The translations under genes and the position numbers were made by a program. Positions 44,976 to 64,000 of a stretch of 64,000 nt of DNA are shown one piece after another. Within the stretch, counting starts at the first letter, position 1, and every line of letters begins with the position of its first letter. This DNA comes from a virus. Taxonomy: Duplodnaviria; Caudoviricetes. The notes below the pieces were generated by a model. That model saw only the letters and a list, made by a program, of their open reading frames with translations. It searched no databases and had not been told where the DNA came from. Where the stretch lies: the IMG/VR virus record IMGVR_UViG_3300033074_000984; one strand, written 5' to 3'.

Positions 44976-45028
44976 CATAGGCCTCTCGATGATACATAGA
45001 TACGTGCTGTGTATCTCGGGAGGCTCCC

Positions 45029-45565
45029 ATCCACTACCTGATCTACGAGACTCTCTGTCTTGTCAACGGCAAGACGTACGTCGGCAAGCACCAGACGCGA
45101 GACGTTAACGACGGCTACGTCGGGTCCGGCAAACTTCTTAAGAGGGCCGTAGCTCGTTACGGCGCCGACAACTTCGTCACGCGCGTCCTGTACGACTTCG
45201 ACGCCGAGTGGAAGATGAACGTGGCTGAACGCGTCTTGGTCTGTACGGACCCAGAAGTGAGCTACAACCTCTGTCCAGGTGGCAAGGGCGGCTGGCGATA
45301 CGTGAACGACTCTTTAACGCATGTAATGCGCAGTGTAAGAGCAGCAAACTTGCTAAAGGGTGCTAGTGCAGGCGGTAGAGCGCGGTTTTTGAAAATGGGA
45401 ATGCCGCATAAATTCATAGAAGCGGCAAAGCATCAGGGAAACGCCTTCCTAGGAAGGAAACACTCTGAAGAGACTAAAGCGCGAATGCGCGCTAATCACT
45501 CTGCAAAGAGTCATCCGAGAGGCCCTCGCGGTCCTTACAAAAAACTAAAGAGGGCGAATGTCTGA
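45029..45565 (+). CDS. SegB-like GIY-YIG homing endonuclease, probable ATC start
   Basis: GGAGG-5nt-ATC then HYLIYETLCLVNGKTYVGKHQT..DGYVGSG, in frame with the 45215 ORF; NUMOD3 GRKHSEETK. Confidence 0.8.
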   Translation: MHYLIYETLCLVNGKTYVGKHQTRDVNDGYVGSGKLLKRAVARYGADNFVTRVLYDFDAEWKMNVAERVLVCTDPEVSYNLCPGGKGGWRYVNDSLTHVMRSVRAANLLKGASAGGRARFLKMGMPHKFIEAAKHQGNAFLGRKHSEETKARMRANHSAKSHPRGPRGPYKKLKRANV

Positions 45566-45813
45566 GAAGTTCCAAGAGTACAAGCTGCAAGTTCGCGTAT
45601 TGGATCGTGACGAGTTCAAACGAGTCATGGACGCGTTTGATCCGTTTCGAGAAGACATCGACTACGTCGCTCGCATAATTAATGAGCGCACTCTTGAGCC
45701 CTCGATAATCTTCGCGATAGTTGCAAAGTCTAGGACGGGGTTTCGTCCACACTACATGGCGCCGCTTGAGATGATCGAAGACCTCAAGGCTGTAAGTCGC
45801 GACAAGAACCAGA

Positions 45814-45887
45814 GCTGCCTTAGCTCAATGGAAGAGCGTCCGGCTGTGGACCGGGAGACCTGAGATCGATACTCGGAGGCAGTACCA
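45814..45887 (+). tRNA. tRNA-His(GTG), no G-1, A73
   Basis: GCTGCCT/AGGCAGT-A-CCA. Confidence 0.88.
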
Positions 45888-45889
45888 AT

Positions 45890-46187
45890 GCCCGTTAGCT
45901 TAACGAGAGCGCCCGCTAAGCGGGAGGCGGATACTCGACGTGTCCTCGGGCTCCAGCTTCTGAGCTAGCTCAAACAGAGCACTGGGTCGTAGCCCTTAAC
46001 AGGGTCGATCTAGCGATGGGGGTCCGAACCCCCCGCTCAGAGCCATATCGGGGTAGCTTAATCCAGAGCACCGCCCTTTAAGGCGGTTGTGGAGGTGAGA
46101 GTCCTCCCCCTGATACCATCCCGAGGTAGCTTAATGAGAGCCTGTCGTGTGGCGGAGATGAAGGTGAGACCCCCTCCCTCGGGGCCA
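45890..46187 (+). ncRNA. Four tandem tRNA-like RNAs with aberrant anticodon arms (45890-45955, 45959-46045, 46047-46118, 46120-46187)
   Basis: Each has an acceptor stem + NCCA, a TAGCT..GAGC D arm and a T-like arm. Confidence 0.7.
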
Positions 46188-46309
46188 GATTCAAGAGCGG
46201 TTGATGAGACGTGGACGAACGTCCTAACAGGACTCGTCTATTCATGGACCGGCTCAGAGTGGCGCTGGACGGGCAGAACTGTTCCGGTGTCAGACTTAGA
46301 CTAGATTAC

Positions 46310-46386
46310 ACGGGTGTAGCTTAGCGGCCAGAGCGGCGGTCTCCAAAACCGCGTCAACGGGGGTTCGAGTCCCTCCTCCCGTGCCA
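46310..46386 (+). tRNA. tRNA-Trp(CCA)
   Basis: Cloverleaf, CCA end. Confidence 0.9.
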
Positions 46387-46394
46387 ACTTTAAC

Positions 46395-46469
46395 GCCTCA
46401 GTAGCTCAGTGGTAGAGCGGATGCCTGAAGAGCATCGCGCCGGAGGTTCGACTCCTTCTTGAGGCACCA
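46395..46469 (+). tRNA. tRNA-Phe(GAA)
   Basis: Cloverleaf, CCA end. Confidence 0.92.
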
Positions 46470-46473
46470 ACAT

Positions 46474-46545
46474 GGACTGCGAAGCTGCCGGTGTGGCTAC
46501 CCGTCTGTCTAACGGGTGAGAGGGGTTCGACTCCCCTGCAGTTCG
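46474..46545 (+). tRNA. tRNA-Asp(GTC)
   Basis: GGACTGC/GCAGTTC-G; CCA position reads CATAG. Confidence 0.8.
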
Positions 46546-46598
46546 CATAGGCCTCCAGACGATACATAGATATGTGCTGTGTATCTCTGGAGGCTCCC

Positions 46599-46778
46599 AT
46601 CCACTACCTGATCTACGAGACTCGATGTCTCGTCAACGGTAAGACGTACGTCGGCAAGCACCAGACACGAGACGTCAATGACGGCTATGTCGGCTCTGAC
46701 AAGTTACTTCGACGCGCCATTAAGAAACATGGAGCCGGGAACTTTGTCACTCGAAGCAGTAAAACAGAAGATACGTGA
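46599..46778 (+). pseudogene. Truncated copy of the SegB-like GIY-YIG gene
   Basis: Near-identical to the N-terminus at 45029, stops after ~60 aa. Confidence 0.8.
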
Positions 46779-46818
46779 GTCGCTGATAAAGCGACGCATG
46801 GGTATGGTATAAGAATAC

Positions 46819-46892
46819 GGGGTGGTGGCGGAACGTCCACGCGAGCGGCTGCAACCCGCGAGAAGTGAGTTAGACTCTCACCCACCCCTCCA
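46819..46892 (+). tRNA. tRNA-Cys(GCA)
   Basis: U73, CCA end. Confidence 0.82.
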
Positions 46893-47009
46893 AATACAAG
46901 GAAGCTAGTGATGTTAGGACTCATGATTGGTCTCGTTACGTTCGCGATCATTTCAGCGATCGTCGTCAAGGGCGCTGAGCTCGTCAACGCAAACGTTCGC
47001 TAGCACGTC

Positions 47010-47080
47010 GGGTAGAGCTCTGGGAGCGGCCGGCTCTGTAAAAGCACGCCAGCGTGGTTCGATTCCACGGCTACCCACCA
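47010..47080 (+). tRNA. Atypical tRNA-Tyr(GTA)-like
   Basis: 6-bp acceptor, minimal D arm, no variable arm, ACCA. Confidence 0.55.
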
Positions 47081-47416
47081 GTTAGAGAGGGCTCTTGATG
47101 GTGCTTCTTCTCGTTGTATGCGCAGTGGCCATTAACTTAAACAGTTGTACAACTGTGCGGGCTTATGGTCCCTACTATGAAGAGGCAGACTGTAAACATT
47201 ACGGCGCCTTAGCAGTGGACAGGGGACAGGCCGCAAAGTACTATTGCGTGCAAGTTCGTGGATAGACGCTGCGAGCTCTGTGGAGAGCCGATTGAACAGT
47301 GCATGGGCTTCCAGCGATCTGATCACTTTGGCGAGTGGCTCGCTGGAACTAGACCTGCCGAGAACATCGGCGAGCGATGTGGGCGGTGCGCTCTCGAGCG
47401 CGTCGTAGAAGAATAC

Positions 47417-47501
47417 GGGGAGGTATGCGGCTAAGGACGCCGCGCCGTCTGTAAAACGGCTGTCTTTGACTGGCTGAGATCGTTACTCAGACTCCCCACC
47501 A
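47417..47501 (+). tRNA. tRNA-Tyr(GTA)
   Basis: CT-GTA-AA, variable arm, ACCA. Confidence 0.82.
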
Positions 47502-47802
47502 ACGCGTGACCTAACGGGTAAGACAAGCTCGGTGCACCGAGGCGATTCGGCCGAGTCGCAAGAGGAGGATGGGTAGAGCTCCCATGCGGTGCATGGCTTG
47601 CTCGGATACCCCACCTGCCCAAGGTCTTCAATAAGAACGCCGACGCTTAGACAACGGCTCGTGAAACAGCTAGAGTCGACGGTTGTTGCATCCGTTAGCG
47701 TCGGCTGCACTCTCGAGGCGACGAACCGGCTGAGATAGAGCGCCTCCTCGCCAGGAAACTGGTCCACGCGTGACGCGGGATAACCAAGTAGTTGCCGGTA
47801 CT

Positions 47803-47877
47803 GCGGACGTGGTATAGAAGGATGTGCCTCTGGCTTCCAACCAGAAGAGGCGAGATCGTTGCTCGCCGTCCGCTCCA
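47803..47877 (+). tRNA. tRNA-Gly(TCC)
   Basis: GCG.. acceptor, U73, CCA. Confidence 0.88.
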
Positions 47878-47883
47878 ATTTAC

Positions 47884-47966
47884 GCCCAGGTGGCATATGG
47901 AAAACGGAACACCTGACCGCCTCAGAAGCGGCGCTTTTGCGGGTTCGAATCCCGCCCTGGGTACCA
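47884..47966 (+). tRNA. tRNA-Leu(CAG)
   Basis: CT-CAG-AA, enlarged D region, ACCA. Confidence 0.78.
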
Positions 47967-48229
47967 ACACGGTGAGCATCTATTTTCCTGATCTCGTTAA
48001 GCGATATGAGAAGCTGGAGCAAGAGCGTCTAGCTAGAGAGCGTGACAGAGAGCGCATTAGAGAGCAGGCTCGTCGCGTAAAACAGATAAATGACGAGATC
48101 GACTTGTACGACTTTAAGATGGACGGAGCGCATCGGCGCCATCGTCAGCAAGGTAACACACTGGCACTCGTAGTGGTGTGTCTAGGCCTGTTATACGTCT
48201 TAGGCATGCTTCTAGCTTTTGTCGGACAC

Positions 48230-48305
48230 GCTCGCGTACCCCAACGGCAGAGGGACCCGGTCGAGAGCCGGTTCAGTGGGAGTTCGAATCTCCCCGCGAG
48301 CACCA
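48230..48305 (+). tRNA. tRNA-Leu(GAG)
   Basis: Short variable loop, C33. Confidence 0.82.
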
Positions 48306-48310
48306 ACGAC

Positions 48311-48393
48311 GCGCGACTGGCTTAGGGAAATCGGTACACTCACTGGCCTTAAAAGTCAGGCTCTTCCGGGTTCGAGTCCCGGGTCGCGCACCA
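48311..48393 (+). tRNA. tRNA-Leu(TAA)
   Basis: CT-TAA-AA, enlarged D region, ACCA. Confidence 0.78.
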
Positions 48394-48395
48394 AC

Positions 48396-48472
48396 GCGCG
48401 TGTAGCCCAATAGGCAGAGGCGCCCGACTCAAACCCGGGTTGTTCGGAGTTCGAATCTCCGCTCGCGCACCA
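48396..48472 (+). tRNA. tRNA-Leu(CAA)
   Basis: Short variable loop, ACCA. Confidence 0.85.
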
Positions 48473-48477
48473 TTTAT

Positions 48478-48563
48478 GGAGATAGTGTCCACCGGAGCGA
48501 CACACGCCAGGGCGGATCTCGAGTTAATCGCCTGGCGGAGAGGTTCGATCCCTTTTATCTCCA
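48478..48563 (+). ncRNA. tRNA-like RNA with elongated anticodon arm (loop CTCGAGT)
   Basis: GGAGATA/TATCTCC acceptor, T arm, CGCCAGG/CCTGGCG stem. Confidence 0.5.
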
Positions 48564-48971
48564 GCCCCCTATTATCAAGGAGCATAGCCCGTGAAAAGCG
48601 TGATTGACGATGACAGCTACAAGCAAGCATTGAGGGATGTCGCGGCCTGGCTCGTTGAACGTCGATTAGCGCTAATCGCATTCCCTCCTCGTGTAGAGGG
48701 GACGTACGCTGACGGCGCTGAAGCGGCGTACAAGAACGCCGCCTTGACTATCGAGATGTGGCTTGAAGAGTGGCAGACAGACTCCTCTGTTTGATCGCTC
48801 CGCACTTCGTCGCTGGGATAGAGGTGCTTGGCTCTTGGCGCGCTCCGATCCTCTCGTATATGAGGAACTGGAACGAGGACAAGATAAGGCGCTATTGCGC
48901 CCAAAAGGGCTGGCTCGTTAGAGTCGTCGATCCTGACGCAGACGAGAAGTTCTTAGCGAGAAGAGAGATCG

Positions 48972-49754
48972 ATGCACTGGGTGATACAGAGTAACGTCTT
49001 CAACGAGCCGTTCTTCTTCAAGATGCTCGATCTCCTCGAGAGAATGAACATACCACACGACGTAGTTCGCGCAGTGCCGTTCACGGGCGAGATGATCCCG
49101 GAGCCTGTCATAGATGGTCCGGCCATCGCGATAGGCTCCTACTCTTTCACGAATCGCGCTCGTCAGCTCGGCTGGCGTCCCGGTTCGTGGACCAACGAGA
49201 ACTACGACTATCGAGTGTGGTCTCGTCACTGGGACGAGTTCGTCTTGAACAAGGGCGAGGTGTGCCAGTTCGGCTCTGTTCCAGAGCGCGAGGGACTCTT
49301 TTTTATGAGACCAACGGCTGATGACAAGGCCTTTACCGGACACGTGCTCGACTACTCAGAGTACTCTGCATGGAGGCAGAAGCTCGTCGACCTCGTCGAA
49401 GACACCACGACCGTTGGCTTGTCTCTAGACGCTCCGGTACTTGTCGCTGAGCCGGTAGGCATAGCTGAGGAGTACAGGTTCGTCGTCATAGACGGAGAGC
49501 CGATCACTGGCTCCCTGTACAAGTCGCGCGGCGTGGCCCTTCAGAGAGAGGTTAGGACTGAACGCCAGGACTTGTACGACTACGTAGCGAGGGTGATCTC
49601 AACGTGGCAGCCGGCTAGGGTGTTCTGCTTAGACGTCGCCATCTCCGGCGGTCAGCCGTACGTATTAGAGATGGGAAACTTCAACTCCGCAGGTCTGTAC
49701 CAGTGCGACGTCCATAAGATCGTGGAGTCGATTGAGGGCATGTTAGTCGAGTAA
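48972..49754 (+). CDS. ATP-grasp protein (R2K/DUF4343 type)
   Basis: FFMRP..D.KAFTG, EYRF.VIDG, F.LD.A, LE.GNFNSAGLY. Confidence 0.8.
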   Translation: MHWVIQSNVFNEPFFFKMLDLLERMNIPHDVVRAVPFTGEMIPEPVIDGPAIAIGSYSFTNRARQLGWRPGSWTNENYDYRVWSRHWDEFVLNKGEVCQFGSVPEREGLFFMRPTADDKAFTGHVLDYSEYSAWRQKLVDLVEDTTTVGLSLDAPVLVAEPVGIAEEYRFVVIDGEPITGSLYKSRGVALQREVRTERQDLYDYVARVISTWQPARVFCLDVAISGGQPYVLEMGNFNSAGLYQCDVHKIVESIEGMLVE

Positions 49755-50310
49755 ATTGCTCCAATAACTGGTTGACTCTTTCGCCGACTCGTGATACTAT
49801 CTGCTCAACATGATGGAGAACGACATGAGCGCTGCAGACACTGAGATCGCATGTTTCGGCACTCACCAGCTCGCTCGCGCGATGATCCTTGCGTCGGATG
49901 ACGTGTTCGTGCGAACCGCTGCAGCGATCGTCACCTCGGTCACCGACGCCTATGACGGTGACGTGAAGATGCCGTCGGTGGCGACGTCGTTATCGGTGCC
50001 GATCTCGCGAGAGGCGGCTCTGGAGTACGTCGCCTCAATCTGTAAGCGTGGGGTGTCCGTCAGGCTCGCTGCCCGCGGAAACGTGACGATTATCGGATGA
50101 GCTCCATGGGAAAGCGCAACAAGGATCTCGCTGCAAGCTATCGAGCCGGCTTCAAAGACGGTCTCCTGATGGCGCTTGAGCGCTCTAGAGCACACATCGT
50201 AGCGAGAGGCGACACGACGCTGCCAGGCTCTCCTGAAAAGAGCCTGCTCTACGTGCTCGAGGCCTGGTTCGACTCTTGCATCGACGGCGTTCGGAGTGAT
50301 CCTGGTCCGT

Positions 50311-50520
50311 CTATCGACTGACAAGCTTCTCGTAGAAGCTCATGTCGAGGCGCTCTCCCATCTGGGCAGCTCGTTCAGCGACGAAGTGAAGATCTTCGTC
50401 GCTCTTTGCGTCTTCTCGAGCGTATTCGAGCAGTCGAATGAACAGCGGCACCGTCATAGAGATGGTGTCTGCTTGCTCTGTCTCTTCTATCATGGAGAGG
50501 TGCTGCGAGTATGTTCTCAT
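50311..50520 (-). CDS. Small late protein
   Basis: Minus-strand CATAAATA upstream; VPLFIRLLEYAREDA. Confidence 0.65.
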   Translation of the reverse strand: MRTYSQHLSMIEETEQADTISMTVPLFIRLLEYAREDAKSDEDLHFVAERAAQMGERLDMSFYEKLVSR

Positions 50521-50820
50521 GGACGTATTTATGCGCAGAGGCGCATAAACCCGGTTTATGCGTAGGAGCGCATAAAGGGAGAGTCGTTTGAGAATCAATA
50601 GAGGAATTAAAGGCTCTGACGACGGACGCGTGTTCGCTTGTCTAGCGATTCTTATGATCGCTGCTGCGGTGTGCGTCGCATATGTAGTCCGTGCATTTCC
50701 CTGTCCATCAGACAGGATCGTACCGATTGGTTTCATGTCTTGGGAGTGCATGGCTAAACAGTAAATGCGGGTTGACGATCTGCGCGACGTTTGATAGAAT
50801 GTCTTCACGATGTAACGAAC

Positions 50821-50895
50821 AGAAACGGACGGTCTGGGGACCTACTGGTTCTTACAAAGCTGGTGATCAGGGTTCGATTCCCTGCGTTTCTACCA
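50821..50895 (+). tRNA. tRNA-Val(TAC), atypical D arm
   Basis: AGAAACG/CGTTTCT-A-CCA; CT-TAC-AA. Confidence 0.72.
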
Positions 50896-51475
50896 TTTTC
50901 TTACGAGCCCAAGCGTCTTTAGCTGCTTGACTCAAACGCGCTTTATGATCAGCTGATTTAATCCTTCCACGTTGGAACGCAGAGACTTTTGATGCTCTAC
51001 TAGCCCGCGTTCGTATGTTCGCTTCGCTTATTTTTCTTCTTCCTTCTTCACCGATATCGCGACCAATGCCAGACAGACTTATCTTTTTTCGCGACTCAGT
51101 TGTGTGTGAACGGCCAAGGAACGGTTTATGATTTCGGGTGCGAGCCGCACGGCGATTCTCTTCAAGAGCTACAAGCCGCTGACTATGCGTCATATTTCGT
51201 TGCTGATTATCACTACAACGATTTAAGCAGTATAAAGCAAAGCGCATCTTGTTCTTGTCTATCTGATTCGTCACCATCTTCACTAGAAGACGATGACAAA
51301 TAAAGTGTTCTTTGAATGTTAGAAGAACCTTGTTATGCGAAGCTTCTTCGCCTCCTAGGCTTTTAGGAATTATGTGGTGGCTTTCATAGTAGTCGTTCTT
51401 TTTAGAGCGTAGTTGCGATGAAGCTTTCTCGATAATGAGAAAATACCATCGTTTATATTTTGATTCTTTGAACAT
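50867..51475 (-). CDS. HNH homing endonuclease (Mob-like) with NUMOD3
   Basis: ESHHIIPKSLGG..N.V.LT.KEHFICH.LL; GRSHTTESRKKIS. Confidence 0.9.
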   Translation of the reverse strand: MFKESKYKRWYFLIIEKASSQLRSKKNDYYESHHIIPKSLGGEEASHNKVLLTFKEHFICHRLLVKMVTNQIDKNKMRFALYCLNRCSDNQQRNMTHSQRLVALEENRRAARTRNHKPFLGRSHTTESRKKISLSGIGRDIGEEGRRKISEANIRTRASRASKVSAFQRGRIKSADHKARLSQAAKDAWARKKMVETQGIEP

Positions 51476-51550
51476 TATATTATATATAAGACAGTTGCCT
51501 TACCTTTAAATTAAACGAGAAAGGTTCGATTCCCTGAGGAAGCACCATTC

Positions 51551-51699
51551 GTTCTCTTTACGCCGTTCTCGTGTTTTCGCGAAAACGGGCCCACAAGTAG
51601 TGTAGCTGTTGCTCCGGGGAGCGGGGACCCCTTTAAAGGGTCCCTCCTAGGTTCGACTCCTAGGCAGTGACAAGGACGCGGGAACGGCGTAAGGAGAAC
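51551..51699 (+). ncRNA. Long-stem RNA enclosing a tRNA-like domain with a UUA anticodon-like loop
   Basis: GTTCTCTTTACGCCGTTCTCG/CGGGAACGGCGTAAGGAGAAC closing stem; D, anticodon and T arms inside. Confidence 0.6.
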
Positions 51700-51700
51700 T

Positions 51701-52575
51701 GGGGCGGCATAGCGCCCTTAAAGATAAGCGAGGGTGACCTCGTAAAAGCTGGGACGCCTACGTACCAGCGCCCGAGAGGGTCTGTCTATGCAAGCCTCGT
51801 CTCGCCCCGAGAGGGGACGCTCGGTTGAAACCCGGGCGTAAGCGCGACGATGAGGACACGAGCCCGATGCTCTGGGATAGAGCCTGGCCTCTGCGAAAGC
51901 AAGCTGGGCTCGAAGCGGTTCGCAAGCCGCGCTTGTGTCGCGCAAACTCATCTAACGTGAGAGACAAGGGGTAGCTGCTAGAGTCTGAGGTTGGCGCCAA
52001 GGGCGACGCAGCAGTGATAAGGGAGGCGGCGGGGATGCACGACGCTGTCCTGACTCACGGTCCGAGTCCTGCCAAGGACGAAGACAGACGGCGTGTGGTA
52101 TTCTTGCGACCAAAAGTCGCGAGAGCTGCAGGACCAGCACGTCGTAGTAGGTTCGAGATAGATGACAAATGGAAAGTCATCTGCTGTGATAGGCAGACAA
52201 ACGGGTTCGATTCCCGCATTCTCATTCAAAACGCAAAGCCTGGTCCGACGACAAGAGTAAGACGGCAAAACCTAAGGCCTCACGGGGTAACTTAGGCGCC
52301 TGACGGTCGCAAGCTGAAGGGTGTTACTGATCAAGACCTCATAGAGACTATAGCGGTCTCGAGCTGCTCGCAAGGCAGGTGGGTTCAACGATTGGCGAGT
52401 ATCTTGTCGTGCGGGTGATACGCCACACCTTAAAAAAGGCGCCGTTGACGACGTACGAGCTCACCTGGCTCGTGGACGTAGGTGAACGCCTCAAGTGCCC
52501 CTCGTGGCCGCACCCGTGCAGGGTGGGCGATAATACCTGAAGCGTCGTCGCTCACGCCCGTAGTCTCAGGGCATT
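51701..52575 (+). ncRNA. GOLLD-like giant structured RNA (~870 nt; boundaries approximate)
   Basis: No credible ORF, dense GNRA-capped hairpins, GTGGTATT..CAAAAG..AGC hairpin and TAGTCTCAGG 3' end recalled from GOLLD; located in a tRNA cluster. Confidence 0.65.
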
Positions 52576-52583
52576 AGTTTTAC

Positions 52584-52658
52584 GCTTCTCTAGCTCAGTG
52601 GCAGAGCGTCGCGCCGACATCGCGTAGGCCGGGGGTTCGATTCCCTCGAGAAGCACCA
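52584..52658 (+). tRNA. tRNA-Val(GAC)
   Basis: Cloverleaf, C33, ACCA. Confidence 0.88.
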
Positions 52659-52879
52659 AACATCGGAGCGCTCTCAATGACTACGTCGTCAGCAGACGAG
52701 ATTACTCAGATGAGTAACTTGGCGCGATACGTTATCAAAGCGGACAAGTGGGACAGCAACGACCACTTATACAAGATGTCGGAGGCGTATCTCGCGCTTC
52801 TTGCAGAGCTAAACAAACTTAAACAGACATCCTAGAGAAACCGAGAAGCTAGGTGCGCGGCCGACCATATAAATAGGTC

Positions 52880-53512
52880 ATGGAACTTATATGTAAACAT
52901 TGCGGTAAGGTGTGCTCTACACGTCGCTCGCTTGGTCAGCATCAATCGTTTTGTCGAAGTAATCCAACACCACGTCAATGTCAGTTTGTCATCTTTAATC
53001 GTACACGCGGCCCTTGGAACAAGGGTTTGAATAAAGCAATTGATCGGCGCGTTGCCCGTAGCAGTGAGACGTTACGTGCTGGATACGCAGATGGCCGATT
53101 GAAGACGTTTGGTGCTTGTTCTTCCACTTATTTAGGTACTGACGCTCACCGTCGTTCATCATCTCGTGGTGGAGGCTATAAAGAACGAGCCGGTAGGTCA
53201 AAGAAGACTTATGTAGAAGACTCTTTTGGTAAGATAACTTGTCTGCAGTCTTCATATGAAGCGAGACTCGCTGATTTATTAAATTCAATGTGTATCAAAT
53301 GGAAGCGACCTGGTGCTTTGACATACGGTGATAAAAAACGCTACTTTTCTGATTTCTATCTTACAGACTATGATCTATACTTAGATACCAAAAATGAGTA
53401 CCTTGCACGTCTTGATGCCGAAAAAATCAGACAAGTTTGTGCTACTGGCAAGCGAGTTCATATCATTCGTGAATGTCAGATATGTGAGGAATATATACGA
53501 ACACTCCTATAG
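52880..53512 (+). CDS. Zn-finger + PD-(D/E)XK putative homing endonuclease
   Basis: CKHC..H..C; QSSYE..YFSDFYL..LYLDTK; AT-rich, late promoter, overlaps tRNA-Ile. Confidence 0.75.
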   Translation: MELICKHCGKVCSTRRSLGQHQSFCRSNPTPRQCQFVIFNRTRGPWNKGLNKAIDRRVARSSETLRAGYADGRLKTFGACSSTYLGTDAHRRSSSRGGGYKERAGRSKKTYVEDSFGKITCLQSSYEARLADLLNSMCIKWKRPGALTYGDKKRYFSDFYLTDYDLYLDTKNEYLARLDAEKIRQVCATGKRVHIIRECQICEEYIRTLL

Positions 53513-53573
53513 CTCAATGGAAGAGCAAGCGCCTGATGAGCGTTGTATCCAGGTTCGATTCCTGGTAGGAGGA
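53503..53573 (+). tRNA. tRNA-Ile(GAT)
   Basis: Cloverleaf; CCA position reads CATAG. Confidence 0.82.
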
Positions 53574-53643
53574 CATAGACCTCCGAGCGAGCTGTAATCG
53601 CTCGGAGGTACAGATTCAAACTTACATCTTGAGGAGAACTGAA

Positions 53644-55521: not shown

Positions 55522-55599
55522 GGACGCGTGACTGGAACTGGCTATCAGTCCAGACTCTTAATCTGGAATATGGGGGTTCGAGTCCCCCCGCGTCCTCCA
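55522..55599 (+). tRNA. tRNA-Lys(CTT)
   Basis: CT-CTT-AA, TCCA end. Confidence 0.85.
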
Positions 55600-55954: not shown

Positions 55955-56269
55955 ATGTCCGAAGAAGTTCGATACGACGGAGAGGCTACTCGGCGATACT
56001 TCATTTTTCAGCGCGCCGACGACATCAAGTCGCTTCTCCAGACCATCATAGACTCTGACCCAAACTTCGGATCAGAGGCGTACATTGTTGGAGATGACGA
56101 GACGATCTCGAGTCTCGGTGGAGACGATCTCGATGCGAGGGACCTGATCTTAGCAATTGAGGATCAGTTCGGCGTTGAGATGCCGGACGACGTTGACTAC
56201 CTCAACGTCAAGATCATTGACATCGCGGCCATTCTCTCAAGAGAGTTGCCTGACGACTATGGTGCTTAG
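55955..56269 (+). CDS. Acyl-carrier-protein-like protein lacking the phosphopantetheine Ser
   Basis: LGGDDLD..DLILAIEDQFGVEMPDD. Confidence 0.7.
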   Translation: MSEEVRYDGEATRRYFIFQRADDIKSLLQTIIDSDPNFGSEAYIVGDDETISSLGGDDLDARDLILAIEDQFGVEMPDDVDYLNVKIIDIAAILSRELPDDYGA

Positions 56270-56657
56270 TCTCAACAGCGCGCAAAGAGCTCTAATAGCC
56301 GGTCACCTCAACAAGTACGACCCACCTACGTCTTGGCGATGGGTCATGCAAGGCTGTTATCTTAGATGCGCATCCGCGCGTGGAACAACGTACACCATAT
56401 CGTCGCAGGACTTCAGCGACCTCATGTCGCGTAAACTCGTAACGTGGGGCGACTATCAACGTCGCGTCTACATTACACCTGAAGGCGTAACCGCTTTGAA
56501 AGAGGAAGATCGTAATGACTGACGTTGAGGCCTGGTGCGTCGCTAATCGCCAGTGGGGTCGTGAGCTTAACATGGCTCATCTTGACTTCCTTATGGCGAA
56601 GACGAAGGACTGGTCTGAGTACCGGTTCTACAAGGAGTGCAAGGAGAAATACGAACG

Positions 56658-56882
56658 ATGAGTGACTTTCAACGCTACTCCCGAAAGGGCTTCGCCGAAG
56701 CGCGCCCTTACGTTCTCGGAGAGGTGCTCTCTGATCGAGTCTCGATCTCTGCAGCTGATCGCGAGGCCGGCTCGCCGAAGGTCGGCGACATGATCGCTCG
56801 TAACCCGGCTGATCCGGGTGATATGTGGCTCATCGCTGAAGACTACTTCAACGCAAACTTCTCTTCTGCGCCGCAGTCGTGA
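56658..56882 (+). CDS. Conserved small phage protein
   Basis: AE.RPY..GE, GSPKVGDMIARNP, D.WL.A..YF..NF. Confidence 0.7.
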   Translation: MSDFQRYSRKGFAEARPYVLGEVLSDRVSISAADREAGSPKVGDMIARNPADPGDMWLIAEDYFNANFSSAPQS

Positions 56883-57061
56883 GCGTGACACTCTTAGTGC
56901 AGCGGACGCTGTACATCTCAGAGTGTCCGAAGTGTGGGGATCGAGTCGAACGCGACTCGAACCCTCCCCGTGAGAGGCAGTGCAAGTGTGGCGCATGGGT
57001 GCCGTTCGTTGCACAGACAGCGACGAGCCCTGAGTACAGAGCTCTGCGCTAACAGAATTAA

Positions 57062-57137
57062 CTAGGTGAAGCTCGTGTTAGAAGAGCACCTCCCTCGGAA
57101 GGAGGAGGCCCCGGGGCAGAGCCGGGCACCTAGACCA
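57062..57137 (+). tRNA. tRNA-Pro(CGG), non-canonical T loop
   Basis: CTAGGTG/CACCTAG-A-CCA; CT-CGG-AA. Confidence 0.8.
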
Positions 57138-57969
57138 ATAGAGGCGAGAGTGCTGGGCGGCGGGTGACCGTCTGCTCTTTGGGAGGGAGCGCTCGACGTG
57201 ATCCCGCCCCGTGTACTGCGGAGAGTCCGTCGAGCGGATGATCTGGCTCTCGCCTCTACCTCAATCGAGTAAGTCATCAACGGAGATGGTTGACGAGCCG
57301 CATGAAATGCGTTAGGATACAGACAAATGAAGTCAAACGGGTCTCGAACGAGGAGGCCGCAAAACTCGTCTCGCTCGGAAGGGGCTCATACGTCTCGAAG
57401 AGTCTCTGGAGAGACGCTCGACATAAGGAAGAGCGGAGTGAAATGGCTGGGAAACCCAAAGGCGTCTAAAGAGACGCACACCTCGTGCTCAGCTCTGAGC
57501 GCAGATCATAAGACGCTGCTCTCGCTGGGCTACTCGCTCGTCCATACGAGCGAAGATGACCATCAGTGGTACACTCGACGCGTTCCGAGACGCGGACGCT
57601 TTTATAGGTTCGAGGTGACTCTGACGCCAAAGCGTCAGACGCGTCTCAGAGCTTGGGTCTTGTCGCCAGACACTAACGGGTTCGAGGCGATTGATGACCG
57701 GCTTGCTGGTCCGTCTTCGCTAGCTGCAGAGGTGAAGAGCTTCGAGCAGAGGTTCGTATGAGCGTCTCCTTCTGTAGAAGGGGCAGGCTTCGTGGCACCG
57801 TGCTTCGCTACAACGACTGGAATGATCACCTCTTTGAGATAGTCAAGATCGAGCGCTCCTGTCGTCGAAAGCGTCACGTGCCGTTGTCGTGTCACCTTCA
57901 GAGCTACCCTGTTTATGAGTCTGTGAAGGACTACTTCCTTCTAGGACACCTCAAGAAGTTCAAGAAGAA

Positions 57970-58242
57970 GTGAACGACGATCAAGACGAGATCGCCAAGT
58001 GGTTGGCGTCTGAGAAGCACCTTCCAGGCTTCATGCGAGACTTTCACGCGCAGAAGGCTCTGTTCAAAGCGGTTCACCGGAGCGTAGACGTTCAGGGGGG
58101 TGAGTACACAAAAGGCATTGACTGGGTAGCTGGTCAGTGCTACACCATCGACGTGTTTTTACGATGGATGGCGAAGCACGGGTACACGCTGTCTCGTTCA
58201 AGGAAACGCCTGAAGTTTGACTACGCTGACGAGTACGTCTAG
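57970..58242 (+). CDS. Conserved hypothetical phage protein
   Basis: LP.FMRDFH.QK.LFK, YTIDVFL.WMA.HGYTL. Confidence 0.7.
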   Translation: MNDDQDEIAKWLASEKHLPGFMRDFHAQKALFKAVHRSVDVQGGEYTKGIDWVAGQCYTIDVFLRWMAKHGYTLSRSRKRLKFDYADEYV

Positions 58243-58257
58243 ATACAAGAGCTCATC

Positions 58258-58626
58258 ATGAAAGCCATTGCTCAGTATGACAGGTTCGCTCATCCTCCAC
58301 TCATGAAGCTCTACATTCACGGGGCTCCTCACAGACGACATCACCGTGAAGTGCTTCAGCGATACAGAGACGACCTCACGCAGAGCGTTTCGAGGCAGTT
58401 GTCTCGAGAGGTCGAGCTTCCGATAGATCATCCGATCGACCTAGAGGTGGTGTTTGTCAACCCGTCATCTCCAGACCTTGACCACTTAATCGAGGCGCTG
58501 TACATGGCTCTTGATGGAAAGACGCTTAAGGGTCCGTCTGTGCTCACTGACGACAGGATAATTCAGTCGGTTAAGATGAGCAAGTACTACGCAACAGAGA
58601 AGACGAAGAGGGACGGCGTACGATGA
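58258..58626 (+). CDS. RusA-like resolvase fold protein
   Basis: PDLDHL..AL..AL, DDRII. Confidence 0.6.
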   Translation: MKAIAQYDRFAHPPLMKLYIHGAPHRRHHREVLQRYRDDLTQSVSRQLSREVELPIDHPIDLEVVFVNPSSPDLDHLIEALYMALDGKTLKGPSVLTDDRIIQSVKMSKYYATEKTKRDGVR

Positions 58627-59042
58627 TTGGTGGCGTGGTTAGGTCAGTGTTGGTTGAGGCCTTTATCGAGGCTGGTAACCTGATTAAGCTCAACGCGCGT
58701 GAGCTACGCTTCGTCGGTAAAAAGACGACTGCAGTCGATACGACTCCTTGGTGGAAGTTCTGGGCGTTAAGCGAGATCGAGTACGTCACTGAACAAGTCA
58801 TCGTCGCGGCGACGAAGGACTTCTCAGTCTCTGTAGAAGAGCGAGACGACGGATCGGCGGTCTCCGTCACGGTTGAAGACGTCGATGTCACGGCTGAGGC
58901 TGACGTCATCACTGATCTCGTTCTTGTAGACGAGAACGGAGACGAGCTCGTCTCATTTTCGCTCTGTGAGTCTTACGTGCCGCCGGCGCCTGGCAACTCT
59001 TTTGGGATGGGTGAGCCGCTCACGTGCAGCTTTCTAGTTTAA

Positions 59043-59123
59043 GGCCCCGTAACCCCCTCCGCTTCGAACGGAGAGTAAGGTAACTGGATGAGAATGCGGG
59101 TTCGACTCCCGCCGGGGTCTCCA
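59043..59123 (+). tRNA. Rearranged tRNA-Arg(TCG)-like gene
   Basis: GGCCCCG/CGGGGTC-T-CCA, CTCCG-CTTCGAA-CGGAG, T arm; D-loop-like sequence lies 3' of the anticodon arm. Confidence 0.65.
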
Positions 59124-59773
59124 ATCATGGAGGGTTTAGTTGTCTCGTTACAACGTCACTGACGTTCTTGATATCCAGATGTGTCCAGACACGAATGACG
59201 CTGGAGCCTCATCCATTCGGGGTTATCTCAAGGCGCTCCTTGAGCGTCTTCTTATCAAGGGAAACGAGTTTTCTGGAAAGCGCCCCTTCGGTAACAGCGG
59301 CTGGGAGTATGACCTCTATGCGCCAATGGTCGCTACGGGGTTCGTTACTGGCAAGCTCGACGGGAACGGTGACGTGGAAGACGTAGATGAAGCATTCGCG
59401 CTCAAGCTCTTACTCGGCGCTGTAAGGTCTCTATGAATTGAAGGGTCCGAGGGAGCTCAAGAGGTGCGTCGCTAAGAGGCGTGATCACCTCAAGGCGATC
59501 AGTTACGACTCCCTGCTGATCTTCAAGCTCGAACGTTGTAAGAAGTGGCGAAAGCAGCATCGCCGTCCTCGAGACGGCTACTTAAGGAGGCGGGATGAGC
59601 GCTATCGAGATGTCGATGAGCTTCTTTAATGACGGTGTGGGTGAGCTGACAATCAGGGACGTGAAGACGGGGGTGGAGGCCTCGATCGAGACCTCTCAAG
59701 AGTTCTCTGAAGACCAGATACTCTTTCTTCTTGACGCCTTCCCGTGCTGCAGCTATGCCAAGTACGAACTAGT

Positions 59774-59862
59774 GGAGGGTTAACCGGACAGGTGCGCCGG
59801 CACCGCCTTGAAAGCGGCAGGGAGCCCAGAGCTCTGGGGATCGAGACCTCAGCCCTCCTCCA
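59774..59862 (+). tRNA. tRNA-Ser(TGA)
   Basis: Long variable arm, CCA. Confidence 0.85.
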
Positions 59863-59889
59863 ACTTGAGAGAAGCATAAATAAGTCACC

Positions 59890-60960
59890 ATGAGAAACTT
59901 TGCCCTACACATCGCAGAGTCAACAACGCGCGACAAGATCGCTGCAGGTCGCGCCCATATCGAGAAGGCTGCAAACACCAGCTTCTCTGCTCGGATTCAG
60001 TCGAGCGGAGTGCGCGGCCCTCGTCACTTCAAGAAGTACATTCAGCCCTTCCTAAAGGGCGGCGAGCACGCTGCTAAAAAGGACACTCACGTCATGGCCA
60101 CCAACGTCGGCCCGCTACGTGCGGGCACGAAGGTGACCATCCATAAGGGCTACGAGCGAGACGGCTCTCACTACGTCGATGTGTCCCAGGGCAAGCATCG
60201 AGCGACGGTCAAGACGTCGTCCCTGTTCAAGCCGCAGGGCATGGTGAGACGACTGGGCGACGCGGGCTTCGGCGCAGAGAGCGCGATTGTTAAACACCTT
60301 CAGAAACACGGTCTCATGGACAAGGCAGACTCTGGCGCCGGCTCAACCGGCGGCAACGACTTCTATGTTCGGCACGCTTCGGGTCAGAAGTATCACGGAA
60401 AGCATCACGAGACGCTACAGGGCGAGTCGAAGATCAACTTGAAGGCTAAGTTCGGCGCCGCTGCTCTGGCGCATGACCCAAAGAAGGGTGGATGGCACGT
60501 AACAGACAAGGCTCGAGCTGACAAGCCCAGGTTTACGAAGTCTGTAGAGAGCGCCACCGTCGGTAGCGTTCCGCTGCTCAAGCACCTAAACAAGGTCTGG
60601 GGTGACCCTCGCAAGGGCGGGAAGCTCAGCAACGTCACCACAGACGTCACCGATCTCAAGCCGTTGCACGCCTACAATCACGATCACAACGTGGACCTGA
60701 TGCATGTCGGCACCCATGGAACGTTTAGGGTCGGTCGATCAGCCGCTAGAGACAGAGCTAACCTCGGACTGCCACTCCCACGTGGCACTGGGCGCTTCTC
60801 TGTCGGTCCAGAGCGCTCGGGGGGCGACGTAGCTGCGGCGTTCAGAGTTCACAACAAGGACGACGCTGCAAAGGGCACCAAGTCCTTTGCCAAGTCGCAC
60901 ATTGACATCACCAAAGACGAGCACATAAAGGACATCAAACGTAGGCTCGGCTACAAGTAA
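59890..60960 (+). CDS. Basic late protein, probable internal head protein with nuclease-like motif
   Basis: Late promoter 59875; N-terminus MRNFALHIAE; G..AE..GNDF..GESK. Confidence 0.65.
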   Translation: MRNFALHIAESTTRDKIAAGRAHIEKAANTSFSARIQSSGVRGPRHFKKYIQPFLKGGEHAAKKDTHVMATNVGPLRAGTKVTIHKGYERDGSHYVDVSQGKHRATVKTSSLFKPQGMVRRLGDAGFGAESAIVKHLQKHGLMDKADSGAGSTGGNDFYVRHASGQKYHGKHHETLQGESKINLKAKFGAAALAHDPKKGGWHVTDKARADKPRFTKSVESATVGSVPLLKHLNKVWGDPRKGGKLSNVTTDVTDLKPLHAYNHDHNVDLMHVGTHGTFRVGRSAARDRANLGLPLPRGTGRFSVGPERSGGDVAAAFRVHNKDDAAKGTKSFAKSHIDITKDEHIKDIKRRLGYK

Positions 60961-61098
60961 GGAGCGGGCGATCTAGATAAATGGAATGGGTTTCAATTGA
61001 AGAGTATATGACTCGCTCTTATGAAGCACGAACGTCTCATCTGAAATTAGACGACGCGTGTGCAGAAGTAGAGAAAGCTGTGAAATTATCTCATACGA

Positions 61099-61188
61099 GG
61101 AAACGTGGCCGAGCGGCTGAAGGCGCTTGCTTGGAAAGCAGGTAAACTCTAACGAGTTTCGTGAGTTCGAATCTCACCGTTTCCGCCA
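61099..61188 (+). tRNA. tRNA-Ser(GGA)
   Basis: Canonical class II, GCCA. Confidence 0.92.
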
Positions 61189-61316
61189 ACTTAAGGAAGA
61201 GTCATGGACCCGTTGCAGGTTCTTGGTTTGCTCTTACTCGTTAGTGAAGCTTGACTAAAGAGTAAACACGCCATTGACTCCGTGTCTCTTCTAGTGTAGA
61301 ATGATCTCGCAATAAC

Positions 61317-61496
61317 GGAGGGTTAACCGAGCAGGCGTTCGGGGTCGCCTCGAAAGATAATGAAGGAAATTATGATCCTTCAAATTGTAAATGGTCAACA
61401 ATAAAAGAACAAAATAGAAATCAGGTTCGTGGCAAAAACGGTAAGTTTTTGGCCAAATACGTCGATCACGGAGGTACTGACGACGAAGTCAGATGA
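61317..61496 (+). pseudogene. 5' half of tRNA-Ser(CGA) fused to an HNH endonuclease C-terminal remnant
   Basis: tRNA stops after CT-CGA-AA; 61356 onward reads DNEGNYDPSNCKWSTIKEQNRN. Confidence 0.7.
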
Positions 61497-61514
61497 AAGT
61501 TCTGACCCTTTTTT

Positions 61515-61591
61515 TGCGGGGACAAGCCCTGGTGGGCTGAACGGTCTCATAAGCCGTGTATGGCTGGTTCGATTCCATGCCCCCGCTACCA
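61515..61591 (+). tRNA. tRNA-Met(CAT), 1:72 mismatch
   Basis: CT-CAT-AA, ACCA, atypical D arm. Confidence 0.72.
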
Positions 61592-61877
61592 ACACTATGG
61601 AGACCAGCTATGGGCGTGCCGTTTACACAATACCTTCGCCCGTCAGGACGCGCGACCGCTCGCTTAGCTCCGTTGCCACCTGGCTGGTCTCAAGAGGACA
61701 TCGACGCTCTCCTTCGTCGAGGGTACTACTATGAAGCAGAGGTTCTGACGACCGGTGAAGTCGCTCTGTACGTCTATGACGGCAAGGATGATCTTCTCAA
61801 GATGATTGTAGCTCCAAACGGGCCTCAAGTTCTTGGCGCAGTAGCGACTCTGTCGGAGATCGCAAGAGGACATCTCA

Positions 61878-62237
61878 ATGCTTCTGCCACTTAGCTCTGC
61901 GCTGTTGGTGCTGTTCGCTCACTGGTTCTCAGACTTCGTCATGCAGTCGCACTGGATGGCTACGAACAAGTCAAGTAACAACGTCGCTCTCGGCGCTCAC
62001 GTTGGCGTCTATTGCGTCTTCATGTACCTCATTTTACTCGCGCTGATGTCTCCGACAGTGGCTGCGGTATACGTACTCGTGAACGGCGCTGCACACGGCG
62101 TCACTGACTGGGTCACGAGTCGCGTGTCTGGCTTCTTCTACAAAAGAGAGAACTGGCACCTGTTCTTCGTGACTATCGGCTTCGATCAGCTCTTGCACGT
62201 CGCCCTGCTCCTGGCTACGCTTGGATGGCTGTCATGA
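61878..62237 (+). CDS. DUF3307-like membrane protein
   Basis: HWFSDFVMQ..MA..KS, H...D, IGFDQLLH. Confidence 0.8.
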   Translation: MLLPLSSALLVLFAHWFSDFVMQSHWMATNKSSNNVALGAHVGVYCVFMYLILLALMSPTVAAVYVLVNGAAHGVTDWVTSRVSGFFYKRENWHLFFVTIGFDQLLHVALLLATLGWLS

Positions 62238-62402
62238 GGGTGATCTTTGATTACTGCGGAAGGACACGCTCTGGTACCGATACCCAAAAGAGTATCCAGA
62301 CGTCGAGTCCGCGATGGTGGCGGCGAGCCGTCTTGCAACTCTAGTGACCATACAAGTTAGAGACGACTTCGCTATTCGCCTTACGATCCTTGAAAGGGAC
62401 AC

Positions 62403-63026
62403 ATGAGCGGTTTTCAGATAAACCTTCCAGAAACAAGCGCTGACTACGACGTTGTCGATGAGGCGGTGCGAGAGTCATCAAAGGTGCCAGGCCTCGTATG
62501 CGAGATCGGCCTCTTTCGTGGTGGCGGTGCGAAGCACTTAATTGACGGTATAGCGGACTCTGGCTCTCGTAAGACGCTGGTCACTATAGATCCGTACGGG
62601 AACATCGAGTACGTTGGGTCTGACGTTCAAGGACTCGTTCGTCTTGACTTCTGGAACTCTCGTCGAAACGACTGCATGGTGAACCTGTTCGCCTACGCTC
62701 AAGTTCGAGACGTCAACTTGCTGTTCTTCAACCTGGAAGACACTGAGTTCTTCAACCGTTTTGGCGACGGCGTGCCGATCTACGAAGACTTCAAGCGCAT
62801 TGAAGATCAGTACTCTTGCGTGCACTTCGACGGTCCACACACCACTGACGCGGTGCTGCATGAGTTCGACTTCTTCAACAAGCGAGCGTCAAAGGGTGCG
62901 TGGTTCGCCTTTGATGACGTGGACTGGGCGTATGATCACGAGAACATCGTTCATCCAGTCATTGTCGCTGCTGGCTGGGAGTCGAGGACTCGTCGCGGCC
63001 GTCACTGGAGCTACGAGAAGGTCTGA
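62403..63026 (+). CDS. Class I SAM-dependent methyltransferase (TylF/Methyltransf_24-like)
   Basis: CEIGLFRGGG, IDPY, HFDGPH, FDD. Confidence 0.8.
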   Translation: MSGFQINLPETSADYDVVDEAVRESSKVPGLVCEIGLFRGGGAKHLIDGIADSGSRKTLVTIDPYGNIEYVGSDVQGLVRLDFWNSRRNDCMVNLFAYAQVRDVNLLFFNLEDTEFFNRFGDGVPIYEDFKRIEDQYSCVHFDGPHTTDAVLHEFDFFNKRASKGAWFAFDDVDWAYDHENIVHPVIVAAGWESRTRRGRHWSYEKV

Positions 63027-63239
63027 TGGACGAGTTGCTTGTATGGAACCACGTTAACGGTTACCTGACTGGCGCGCTTCCCGCACAGAAGGTGCGAGTA
63101 ACTGCGAACGACTACGCCTATGAGGGTTGGATGACCGGCGTGGTCAGAAAGCACTCCGGCGCCATTCTCGCTGTCGTAGAAGACGACAACGGCAGGCTCT
63201 TCATTCACAACGCGAAGCAGCTCGAACTGATATAGCGCC

Positions 63240-63647
63240 ATGCGCGGCGACCCTACAGACCCGATGTACTCTCCGGCTGCTTGTGAAGAGCGTCGTCGTA
63301 GGATAAGGGTGTCGGTCGCCGCGTACGCTTACGAGATCGAGTCGGACCCCGTCATGAGTGACGCTGAGTTTGACGCGTTAGCGCAAAGGGTTGACCTCTC
63401 GATAGACACCGGCTCTCCTGTGCTCGACGAGTTCTTCAGAAACGAGTTCGACCCATACACCGGTTCATGGATATACGCACATCCAGAGCTTGAGGCTGTT
63501 GGACGCGTATGTAGACGAAGTCGAGAGAAGTTCTACGTGGACTTTGAAGCTTTGAAGCGCAAGCTGGCAAAGCGCTTGACAGAAATGAAACAATGCGCTC
63601 TTAGCTTAACGGTAGAGCCAACAATGATGGAAACGCTGTTTGACTAA
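63240..63647 (+). CDS. Protein resembling the NAD-dependent DNA ligase N-terminal (Ia) subdomain
   Basis: AYAYE..SDPVMSDAEFDAL. Confidence 0.6.
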   Translation: MRGDPTDPMYSPAACEERRRRIRVSVAAYAYEIESDPVMSDAEFDALAQRVDLSIDTGSPVLDEFFRNEFDPYTGSWIYAHPELEAVGRVCRRSREKFYVDFEALKRKLAKRLTEMKQCALSLTVEPTMMETLFD

Positions 63648-63739
63648 GGTCTGGGCGGCTCGGTGGCCTCAATAATCGTGGTAAAACGCTATCGCTTGCC
63701 CATCGACTAAAGATCAGTAGGTCCTTAAAAAGACGGAAT

Positions 63740-63815
63740 GCTAGCGTCGTCTAACGGTCAAGACCAGCACCTCATAAGTGCTCAAATGTAGGTTCGAATC
63801 CTGCCGCTAGCACCA
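63740..63815 (+). tRNA. tRNA-Met or Ile2 (CAT)
   Basis: Cloverleaf, ACCA. Confidence 0.88.
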
Positions 63816-63829
63816 ATTTAAGACTTAAC

Positions 63830-63900
63830 GCGGATGTAGGCTAGTGGTAGACTCCCTGAGCGCCACTCAGGGGCCGTGGGTTCGATTCCCACCGTCCGCA
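63830..63900 (+). tRNA. tRNA-Gly(GCC)-like
   Basis: Loop GC-GCC-AC; A73; CCA position reads CATAG. Confidence 0.75.
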
Positions 63901-63961
63901 CATAGACCTCCAGTCATGATAAATAGAAGCGATCGCTTCTCTCCTCTGACTGGAGGCTCCC

Positions 63962-64000
63962 ATTCACTACTTGATCTACGAGACCAAGTGTCTCATCAAC
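63962..64000 (+). CDS. Start of a third SegB-like GIY-YIG gene (ATT start), runs off window
   Basis: GGAGG-ctccc-ATT-CAC-TAC-TTG-ATC-TAC-GAG. Confidence 0.7.
   Translation, partial: MHYLIYETKCLIN

Follow-up and report, generated by a model that had tools for sequence, protein, structure and literature searches.

The 64,000-nucleotide stretch analysed here (the window) is the minus strand of positions 66-64065 of the 161,065-bp record IMGVR_UViG_3300033074_000984, an uncultured virus of the Caudoviricetes (Duplodnaviria) in IMG/VR; coordinates are window positions unless a record position is named. At the 3′ ends of four of its tRNA or tRNA-like genes lies a small cassette, in which a junction sequence in place of the encoded CCA is followed by a hairpin leader and, at three of the sites, by an open reading frame (ORF) for a SegB-like GIY-YIG endonuclease (Table 1). 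An earlier reading of the window, made from its letters alone (the sequence-only reading), had described a full-length ORF at 45029, a truncated one at 46599, a third leaving the window at 63962 and only a hairpin at 53574, and this layout holds.

Table 1. Features of the window connected with the tRNA-linked cassettes (SD, Shine-Dalgarno sequence; nt, nucleotides)
Feature	Position	Strand	Evidence
gp55-type late sigma factor	19226..19705	+	38% identity to T4 gp55, E 4.8e-25; phrog_234, 1.8e-51
tRNA-Glu(CUC), no encoded CCA, T-loop GGTTCGAATCC	44902..44975	+	ARAGORN; Rfam tRNA 52 bits; motif check
Copy 1 leader: junction CATAGGCCTC, hairpin 44980-45025, ATACATA 44992-44998, SD GGAGG 45019-45023, 5-nt spacer	44976..45028	+	-29.1 kcal/mol, z -5.15
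Putative SegB-like GIY-YIG ORF, copy 1: 178 codons from ATC	45029..45565	+	phrog_314, 7e-29; T4 SegB, 5e-28
tRNA-like cloverleaf, anticodon GUC (Asp-like), no CCA, T-loop GGTTCGACTCC	46473..46545	+	tRNA-Sec model; pairing by eye
Copy 2 leader: CATAGGCCTC, hairpin 46550-46595, ATACATA 46562-46568, in-frame ATG 46572	46546..46598	+	-30.6 kcal/mol, z -5.65
Copy 2, truncated: 59 codons from ATC	46599..46778	+	comparison with copy 1
tRNA-Ile(GAU), no CCA	53503..53573	+	ARAGORN; Rfam 60.5 bits
Putative relic: CATAGACCTCC, perfect 12-bp hairpin 53579-53609, GGAGG, 5 nt, ATT 53614	53574..53643	+	-24.2 kcal/mol, z -6.06
tRNA-Gly(GCC), no CCA	63830..63900	+	ARAGORN; Rfam 48.1 bits
Copy 3 leader: CATAGACCTC, hairpin ~63905-63959, GATAAATAG box (ATAAATA 63919-63925), SD GGAGG, 5-nt spacer	63901..63961	+	-26.9 kcal/mol, z -5.66
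Copy 3 start: ATT, 194 codons overall	63962..64000	+	ORF continued past window

The motif CATAGRCCTC occurs at exactly four places on the two strands of the whole record (window 44976, 46546, 53574 and 63901), where by our estimate about 0.6 occurrences would be expected by chance, and every one of them starts one base past N73 of a CCA-less tRNA or tRNA-like gene; the junction starts agree with the tRNA ends given by Rfam (44975, 53573 and 63900). The remaining tRNAs among the 22 that ARAGORN called in the window nearly all have an encoded CCA, chiefly as CCAA. The earlier observation that four tRNAs end in N73-CATAG(G/A)CCTC instead of CCA is therefore confirmed, with a reservation about its "tRNA-Asp": the unit at 46473-46545 does pair by eye into a cloverleaf with anticodon GUC, but it was missed by ARAGORN and by the Rfam tRNA model at gathering score, its sole model match being to tRNA-Sec (37 bits, E 1e-5), and because it is so weakly recognised "tRNA-like" is the safer label. 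No phage-encoded CCA-adding enzyme (PF01743) was found in this phage, so the four CCA-less tRNAs would rely on the host enzyme.

The frame of copy 1 is closed upstream by a TGA (44990-44992), and no ATG, GTG or TTG stands between this stop and the GIY motif. Copy 2 begins with codons identical to those of copy 1 and loses homology near 46752; about two-thirds of the ORF, at the 3′ end, are gone and with them the region of the catalytic Glu and Asn. Its in-frame ATG at 46572 lies in the hairpin loop, at a place where copy 1 has ACG. Copy 3 has an in-frame TGA four codons ahead of its ATT, retains the GIY-YIG catalytic residues (Tyr, Tyr-x-Gly, Glu and Asn), and continues 546 nt beyond the window end, its frame crossing both record ends unbroken to give 194 codons in total; the record is thus a permuted circle cut within the copy 3 gene. 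At tRNA-Ile there is neither an ORF nor a promoter box. About 30 nt after the ATT of this site match the opening of copy 3 at 15/31 positions (a hand count), and they run into the ribosome-binding site (RBS) and ATG (53644) of an unrelated 245-amino-acid gene that has no PHROG match. We read this hairpin-only site as a probable deletion relic of the cassette.

From its sequence, the copy 1 product is a SegB-family GIY-YIG homing endonuclease: it aligns with T4 SegB residue 1 to residue 1 (BLASTP 5e-28, 32% identity), it matches phrog_314 ("homing endonuclease", 7e-29), and in a nine-sequence alignment including copy 1, used for residue conservation, Y6, K15, Y17, G19, H21, E67 and N80 (copy 1 numbering) are invariant. 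In the C-terminal, putatively DNA-binding region an HSEETKAxM block is present. A sequence search of PDB with copy 1 gave nothing meaningful.

To place these cassettes in their family we scanned IMG/VR with a profile, which gave at least 579 matches; 80 loci were examined (L numbers below), yielding 77 non-redundant SegB-like ORF starts. A tRNA end lies within 110 nt upstream of 60 of the 77 ORFs, the start being usually 55-68 nt after it, and a TAAATA box stands between tRNA and start in 52/60. The encoded CCA is missing in 54/61 endonuclease-adjacent tRNAs as against 15/244 other tRNAs of the same loci. At the junction (n=53), position 74 is C in 51, position 75 A in 48 and position 76 T in 48, and after this CAT it mostly continues with A and then G or A. 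Downstream, the ORF runs right up to or into the following tRNA in about 23 of 49 cases. The tRNAs used belong to 17 isotypes. Thus the tRNA-N73-CAT cassette is the standard architecture of the SegB-like family, and the proposal that the unit is mobile and tied to tRNA 3′ ends in other genomes too is well supported by these data and by the relationship to T4 SegB. A T-loop with the longer CATAGRCCTC form after it has 20 matches in IMG/VR, 19 of them chance occurrences inside coding sequence and one real. The real one is in an AT-rich contig (L077/L155), in which the cassette begins with CATAGGCCTC after tRNA-Asp, the loop contains an exact TATAAATA and ATA stands at the start position. In L099 (tRNA-Lys) the leader is homologous to that of copy 3, reading CATAGACCTCC...GATAAATAG...GGAGGC and then ATG CAC TAC. 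In a limited search of the literature we did not find the precise N73-CAT junction stated.

The survey also turned up other uncultured phages in which a single tRNA array has two or three SegB-like genes within a few kb (L006, L100, L102, L116, L123, L134 and L137), such as IMGVR_UViG_3300017778_002587 (L006, at 3001, 4617 and 5922); the paralogues of one phage group with each other in some cases but not in others.

All four sites in the window have a hairpin with GGAGG in its 3′ arm, as the sequence-only reading had noticed. The predicted folds (-24 to -31 kcal/mol) are far stronger than those of shuffled leaders, with z scores of -5.2 to -6.1 and 0 of 200 shuffles folding as well, and where the stems of the copies differ the changes compensate each other (C-G versus A-T, for example). 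The GGAGG sits 5 nt upstream of the proposed ATC/ATT start. Full leaders fold strongly, whereas RNAs starting after the promoter-like box have no significant predicted structure (z ~0), which suggests, in agreement with the earlier proposal, that the RBS would be occluded in the longer RNA.

Such shorter RNAs could arise from late promoters. The genome encodes a gp55-type sigma factor (Table 1), the trans-acting factor that ATAAATA boxes require, and the whole record has 23 instances of ATAAATA on the coding strand against 5 on the other, about 3.6 per strand being expected by our calculation at 56.6% GC (guanine plus cytosine). Most of these sites precede an RBS and ATG by 10-40 nt, usually within NATAAATA and most often preceded by G (for instance at 7544, 15390, 42210 and 59876). 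ATAAATA thus behaves as the late-promoter motif of this phage, and with the gp55 homologue this use of the motif sustains the late-promoter reading; in copy 3 the GATAAATAG box is found inside the hairpin, downstream of its 5′ arm.

In our view these cassettes are, with good probability, those of GIY-YIG homing endonucleases of the SegB family, in a T4-like phage that encodes gp55. T4 SegB has a 27-bp site with a conserved core, GGTTCRANTCC, that is the tRNA T-loop, cleaves mostly just after CCAR and is able to cut T4's own tRNA genes, and its SD and AUG are predicted to lie within a hairpin (Brok-Volchanskaya et al. 2008, PMC2330249). A 2010 review (PMC2988022) lists segB among the endonucleases with predicted control by hairpin and late promoter. 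Placement at the CCA position and RBS occlusion are therefore what would be expected of this family. In the T4 genome itself the segB ATG lies 41 nt after the CCA-less end of tRNA-Ile, with CATAAATA between. The two systems thus have in common a homologous protein, a gene directly 3′ of a CCA-less tRNA, an SD-sequestering hairpin containing an ATAAATA-type box, and an insertion point that matches the published T-loop target and cut after CCAR. They differ in that T4 has one copy whereas this phage has two intact, one truncated and one relic at four tRNAs; in the start codon (AUG in T4, AUC/AUU here) and the junction (N73-TAT in T4, CAT here); and in the last conserved C-terminal module of ~40 amino acids, which is missing from the proteins of this phage.

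We propose that the enzyme works in the way published for T4 SegB, recognising the conserved tRNA T-loop and cleaving at the CCA-R end, and that cleavage there would lead to insertion of the gene at the cut, CCA being replaced by CAT and the spacer filled to the next gene. An occupied tRNA would then need 3′ trimming and CCA addition by the host. The three copies would descend from one ancestor within the phage lineage and would have moved among different tRNA genes, one of them later losing its 3′ two-thirds while a fourth site retained the leader only. Expression appears to be restrained in three layers: when the tRNA operon is transcribed through into the gene, the SD would be hidden in a hairpin (-27 to -31 kcal/mol); a late promoter whose box lies within the hairpin would produce late RNA without the 5′ arm, freeing the ribosome site; and the start codon, AUC or AUU, would be a weak near-cognate one. 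We infer both the promoter use and the cleavage specificity in this phage.

Several of our observations weigh against this interpretation. The Pfam GIY-YIG, SegE_GIY-YIG and NUMOD3 matches are under cut-offs (NUMOD3, E 0.0014). Copies 1 and 3 end in HPRGPRGPYKK in place of the C-terminal NSQFG...GWxKGRK module of T4 SegB and most relatives, so that their DNA binding and activity could be impaired. The GGTTCRANTCC motif is present in 4/4 host tRNAs of the cassettes, but also in 17/27 tRNA or tRNA-like units of the genome; the difference is not significant alone, and we dropped enrichment of the T-loop motif at occupied tRNAs as an argument. Copies 1 and 2 carry ATACATA and not the ATAAATA consensus, and since ATACATA, although biased 10:1 by strand, is just ~two-fold enriched, the activity of their boxes is less certain; of the late-promoter-like boxes first noticed in the hairpins, that of copy 3 is thus the one best upheld, and the relic is boxless. 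Finally, neither a close relative nor an empty allele was found in deposited phages, IMG/VR or metagenome scans: megablast of 44400-47000 against deposited phages gave no match, a metagenome scan for GGAGGCTCCCATNCACTAC gave 20 matches, all unrelated, an IMG/VR scan with a degenerate pattern of leader and N-terminus gave none, and no relatives were found of the gene downstream of the relic, which were sought for an empty or occupied allele.

In a tree of 81 homologues the three copies of this genome form a clade (support 100/85), and this monophyly supports movement between tRNA genes within the lineage, the route of spread that we infer. The suggestion of spread within one genome thus holds as far as computation goes; the copies are old paralogues, with synonymous divergence (dS) of 0.55-1.2, and the sampling of relatives is thin. 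A less probable history, which deserves to be taken seriously, is that each copy came in on its own, through homing from a co-infecting relative that already had the cassette at the same tRNA gene, and not by intragenomic moves. Classical homing (T4 x T2) acts between homologous loci (PMC2330249), the age of the copies would suit such a history, and three of the surveyed loci (L116, L123 and L169) each carry two copies that do not cluster together. Against it, the three copies here are mutually closest among all 81 sequences, although with the thin sampling mentioned above.

The second departure from T4 is the start codon. Among the 77 relatives, the codon aligned to ATC/ATT is ATG in 53, TTG in 12, GTG in 1, ATT in 2 and ATA in 2 (one of the two ATA codons being directly followed by ATG), and a few have displaced starts; Stenotrophomonas phage Marzo and L099 have ATG CAC/CAT TAC/TAT where this phage has ATC/ATT CAC TAC. 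All three paralogues of this phage have ATY at the start position. Their N-terminal domains give dS 0.55 with a dN/dS (ratio of nonsynonymous to synonymous divergence) of 0.175 for copy 1 versus copy 3, 1.02 with 0.126 for copy 1 versus copy 2, and 1.17 with 0.105 for copy 3 versus copy 2, so the copies diverged under purifying selection. If their common ancestor already had ATY, this coding constraint afterwards argues that ATY initiates. Elsewhere in the family, L111, L133 and L155 each acquired an ATH start on a separate occasion, and their ORFs, 195-205 codons long, are intact. From homology, spacing and selection we think that translation probably initiates at AUC/AUU in the full-length copies. 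The presence of the in-frame ATG in copy 2 limits the term "non-AUG", which the sequence-only reading had applied throughout, strictly to the two full-length copies. We considered a frameshift from the ATG that copy 1 has further upstream at 44989 and copy 3 at 63916, and rejected it, since this ATG is missing in copy 2 and in L077.

It is possible, but in our view improbable, that the full-length copies are decaying, untranslated pseudogenes, in which ATG has mutated to ATC/ATT and the ORFs are not yet disrupted. Selfish endonuclease genes often degenerate, and this genome already has a truncated copy and a relic; the SegB-type C-terminal module of T4 is missing; L105 and one L100 copy have no plausible start either; and copies 1 and 2 hardly differ at their 5′ ends. 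Gene conversion at the 5′ end could have spread a dead start codon between copies, which would weaken the case for selection after ATG loss. However, ATY is common to three paralogues despite their dS of 0.55-1.2 at dN/dS of 0.10-0.18, the ORFs of 178 and 194 codons are free of frameshift or stop, SD and spacing are kept, and 5 of 7 independent lineages without a canonical start have ATH, for which we calculate a binomial P of ~0.045 under random mutation of ATG.

The hairpins themselves could be seen in another way, with the CAT junction and hairpin as a tRNA 3′-end processing or stabilising module to which the endonuclease is an optional passenger, the tRNA-Ile site then being native. Counting towards this are the intact, very stable hairpin-only site, the family-wide conservation of CAT at positions 74-76, which exceeds that of the rest of the leader, further CCTCC...GGAGG hairpins in the genome (12082 and 36732), and the special 3′ processing that the CCA-less tRNAs of T4 need. 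We hold it to be quite unlikely: in the survey the CCA-less CAT junction goes together with an endonuclease ORF next to it (54/61 versus 15/244), and the tRNA-Ile site keeps GGAGG, a 5-nt spacer, ATT and the 15/31 identity to copy 3, which fits a deletion product. A start elsewhere in frame, nine nt downstream, where copies 1 and 2 have CTG and copy 3 has TTG, would give M-I-Y-E-T, retain the invariant Tyr of the GIY motif and use a canonical TTG at 63971 in copy 3, yet it is very improbable, with a CTG in copy 1 that is no better than ATC, an SD spacing of 14 nt instead of 5, and a canonical start exactly at the ATC/ATT position in 66/77 relatives.

More speculatively, the nearly invariant N73-CAU and the hairpin might act together as family-wide RNA punctuation, one host RNase Z/BN-type cut after N73 maturing the CCA-less tRNA and capping the 5′ end of the endonuclease mRNA with the hairpin; AUH starts might then have been selected in some lineages as a third brake on a nuclease able to cut the tRNA genes of its own phage. 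We offer this as a doubtful idea only.

How far do these cassettes differ from other known systems? Chihara et al. (2026, PMC13096335) reported a significant co-localisation, within 1 kb, between tRNAs and SegB homologues, and an amplification, driven by SegB, of tRNA-segB units in which segB is C-truncated. Their T6 case resembles ours in having a tRNA-linked endonuclease found in many phages and C-truncated segB copies beside tRNAs. In contrast, T6 has recent tandem repeats of one tRNA-segB unit while the copies in this phage are dispersed and old (dS 0.55-1.2), and what truncation has taken away here is some two-thirds of the ORF and not 28 amino acids. Intron-encoded endonucleases share the concealment of the RBS in early read-through RNA and the promoter in or beside the hairpin that gives a translatable late RNA; they differ in their intron location and AUG start. 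Among the free-standing endonuclease ORFs of T4, all start at AUG except mobA, for which GUG is predicted (PMC2988022).

The best match among deposited phages (40% identity) is the endonuclease of phage Marzo (MZ326868, Menderavirus). Its gene, too, directly follows a CCA-less tRNA, tRNA-Trp (N73-CAAATTTGTAAATAGAGGT-ATG), and its product begins MHYILYKT where that of our phage begins IHYLIYET; unlike the cassettes described here it is a single copy, starts with ATG and has almost no hairpin. The deposited coding sequence of Marzo (L073 4028-4600) starts at an internal ATG (record 83514), 108 nt downstream of the homologous start, ATG CAT TAT at about record 83406, which lies 18 nt after the tRNA; the catalytic N-terminus with its GIY motif is thereby left unannotated.

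Most of the layout, that is the tRNA placement and RBS occlusion, is accordingly already known from T4 segB (PMC2330249, PMC2988022, PMC13096335). What we add is modest, namely the probable near-cognate start and the figures for the N73-CAT junction, and we propose no new system.

Other features of the window touch on these subjects. Two seg-like GIY-YIG genes, 12109-12861 and 16466-17050 (+), match phrog_314 (~8e-16 and 8e-17) and begin MSETYGFVYVWR and MDKKYGFVYVWRD, with ATG starts; both follow an ATAAATA or ATACATA box and neither adjoins a tRNA, and the first is also preceded by a CCTCCGAGG...CTTGGAGG hairpin. Outside the window, copy 1 has one more GIY-YIG match, a distant one (31% identity, E 0.0015), at G000:C1:135087-135353 (-), in a 143-amino-acid open frame that may be another endonuclease gene. 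The tRNA-Asn at 43964-44047 (+) is also without encoded CCA (…CTGGAGC|TTGGCG), and has neither a CAT junction nor an endonuclease gene after it; ARAGORN further called a CCA-less tRNA with the ochre-reading anticodon UUA (51602-51672, +) and a tRNA with a four-base anticodon call, ttca (38540-38613, +). Between tRNA-His and tRNA-Trp, 45888-46187 (+) holds four adjoining CCA-ended tRNA-like units uncalled by ARAGORN; for one of them (46047-46115) the Rfam tRNA model gives 47.4 bits. Two more Rfam tRNA matches missed by ARAGORN, 47884-47963 and 59043-59120 (+; 32.7 and 31.6 bits), have the GGTTCRANTCC T-loop and a CCAA end. A GOLLD RNA (Rfam RF02032; 154.3 bits, gathering score 150, full model length) occupies 52088-52572 (+), its end lying 12 nt before tRNA-Val(GAC) at 52584.

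For the SegB family, the survey puts figures to what the literature gives as co-localisation within 1 kb: the cassette begins at position 74, CCA is changed to CAT and the spacer is usually filled to the next tRNA. This phage offers a clean natural case of a SegB-type element that appears to have settled at several different tRNA genes in one phage lineage, and such multi-tRNA colonisation fits the published idea that a universal T-loop/CCA-end target permits wide movement. The AUC/AUU start would hide the catalytic N-terminus and so explain why automatic annotation misses or shortens such genes. If the AUH start is true, it would be a third control layer for homing endonucleases, beside promoter timing and the hairpin, and these genes would enlarge the small set of natural bacterial-type genes whose initiation codon is AUC, AUU or AUA.

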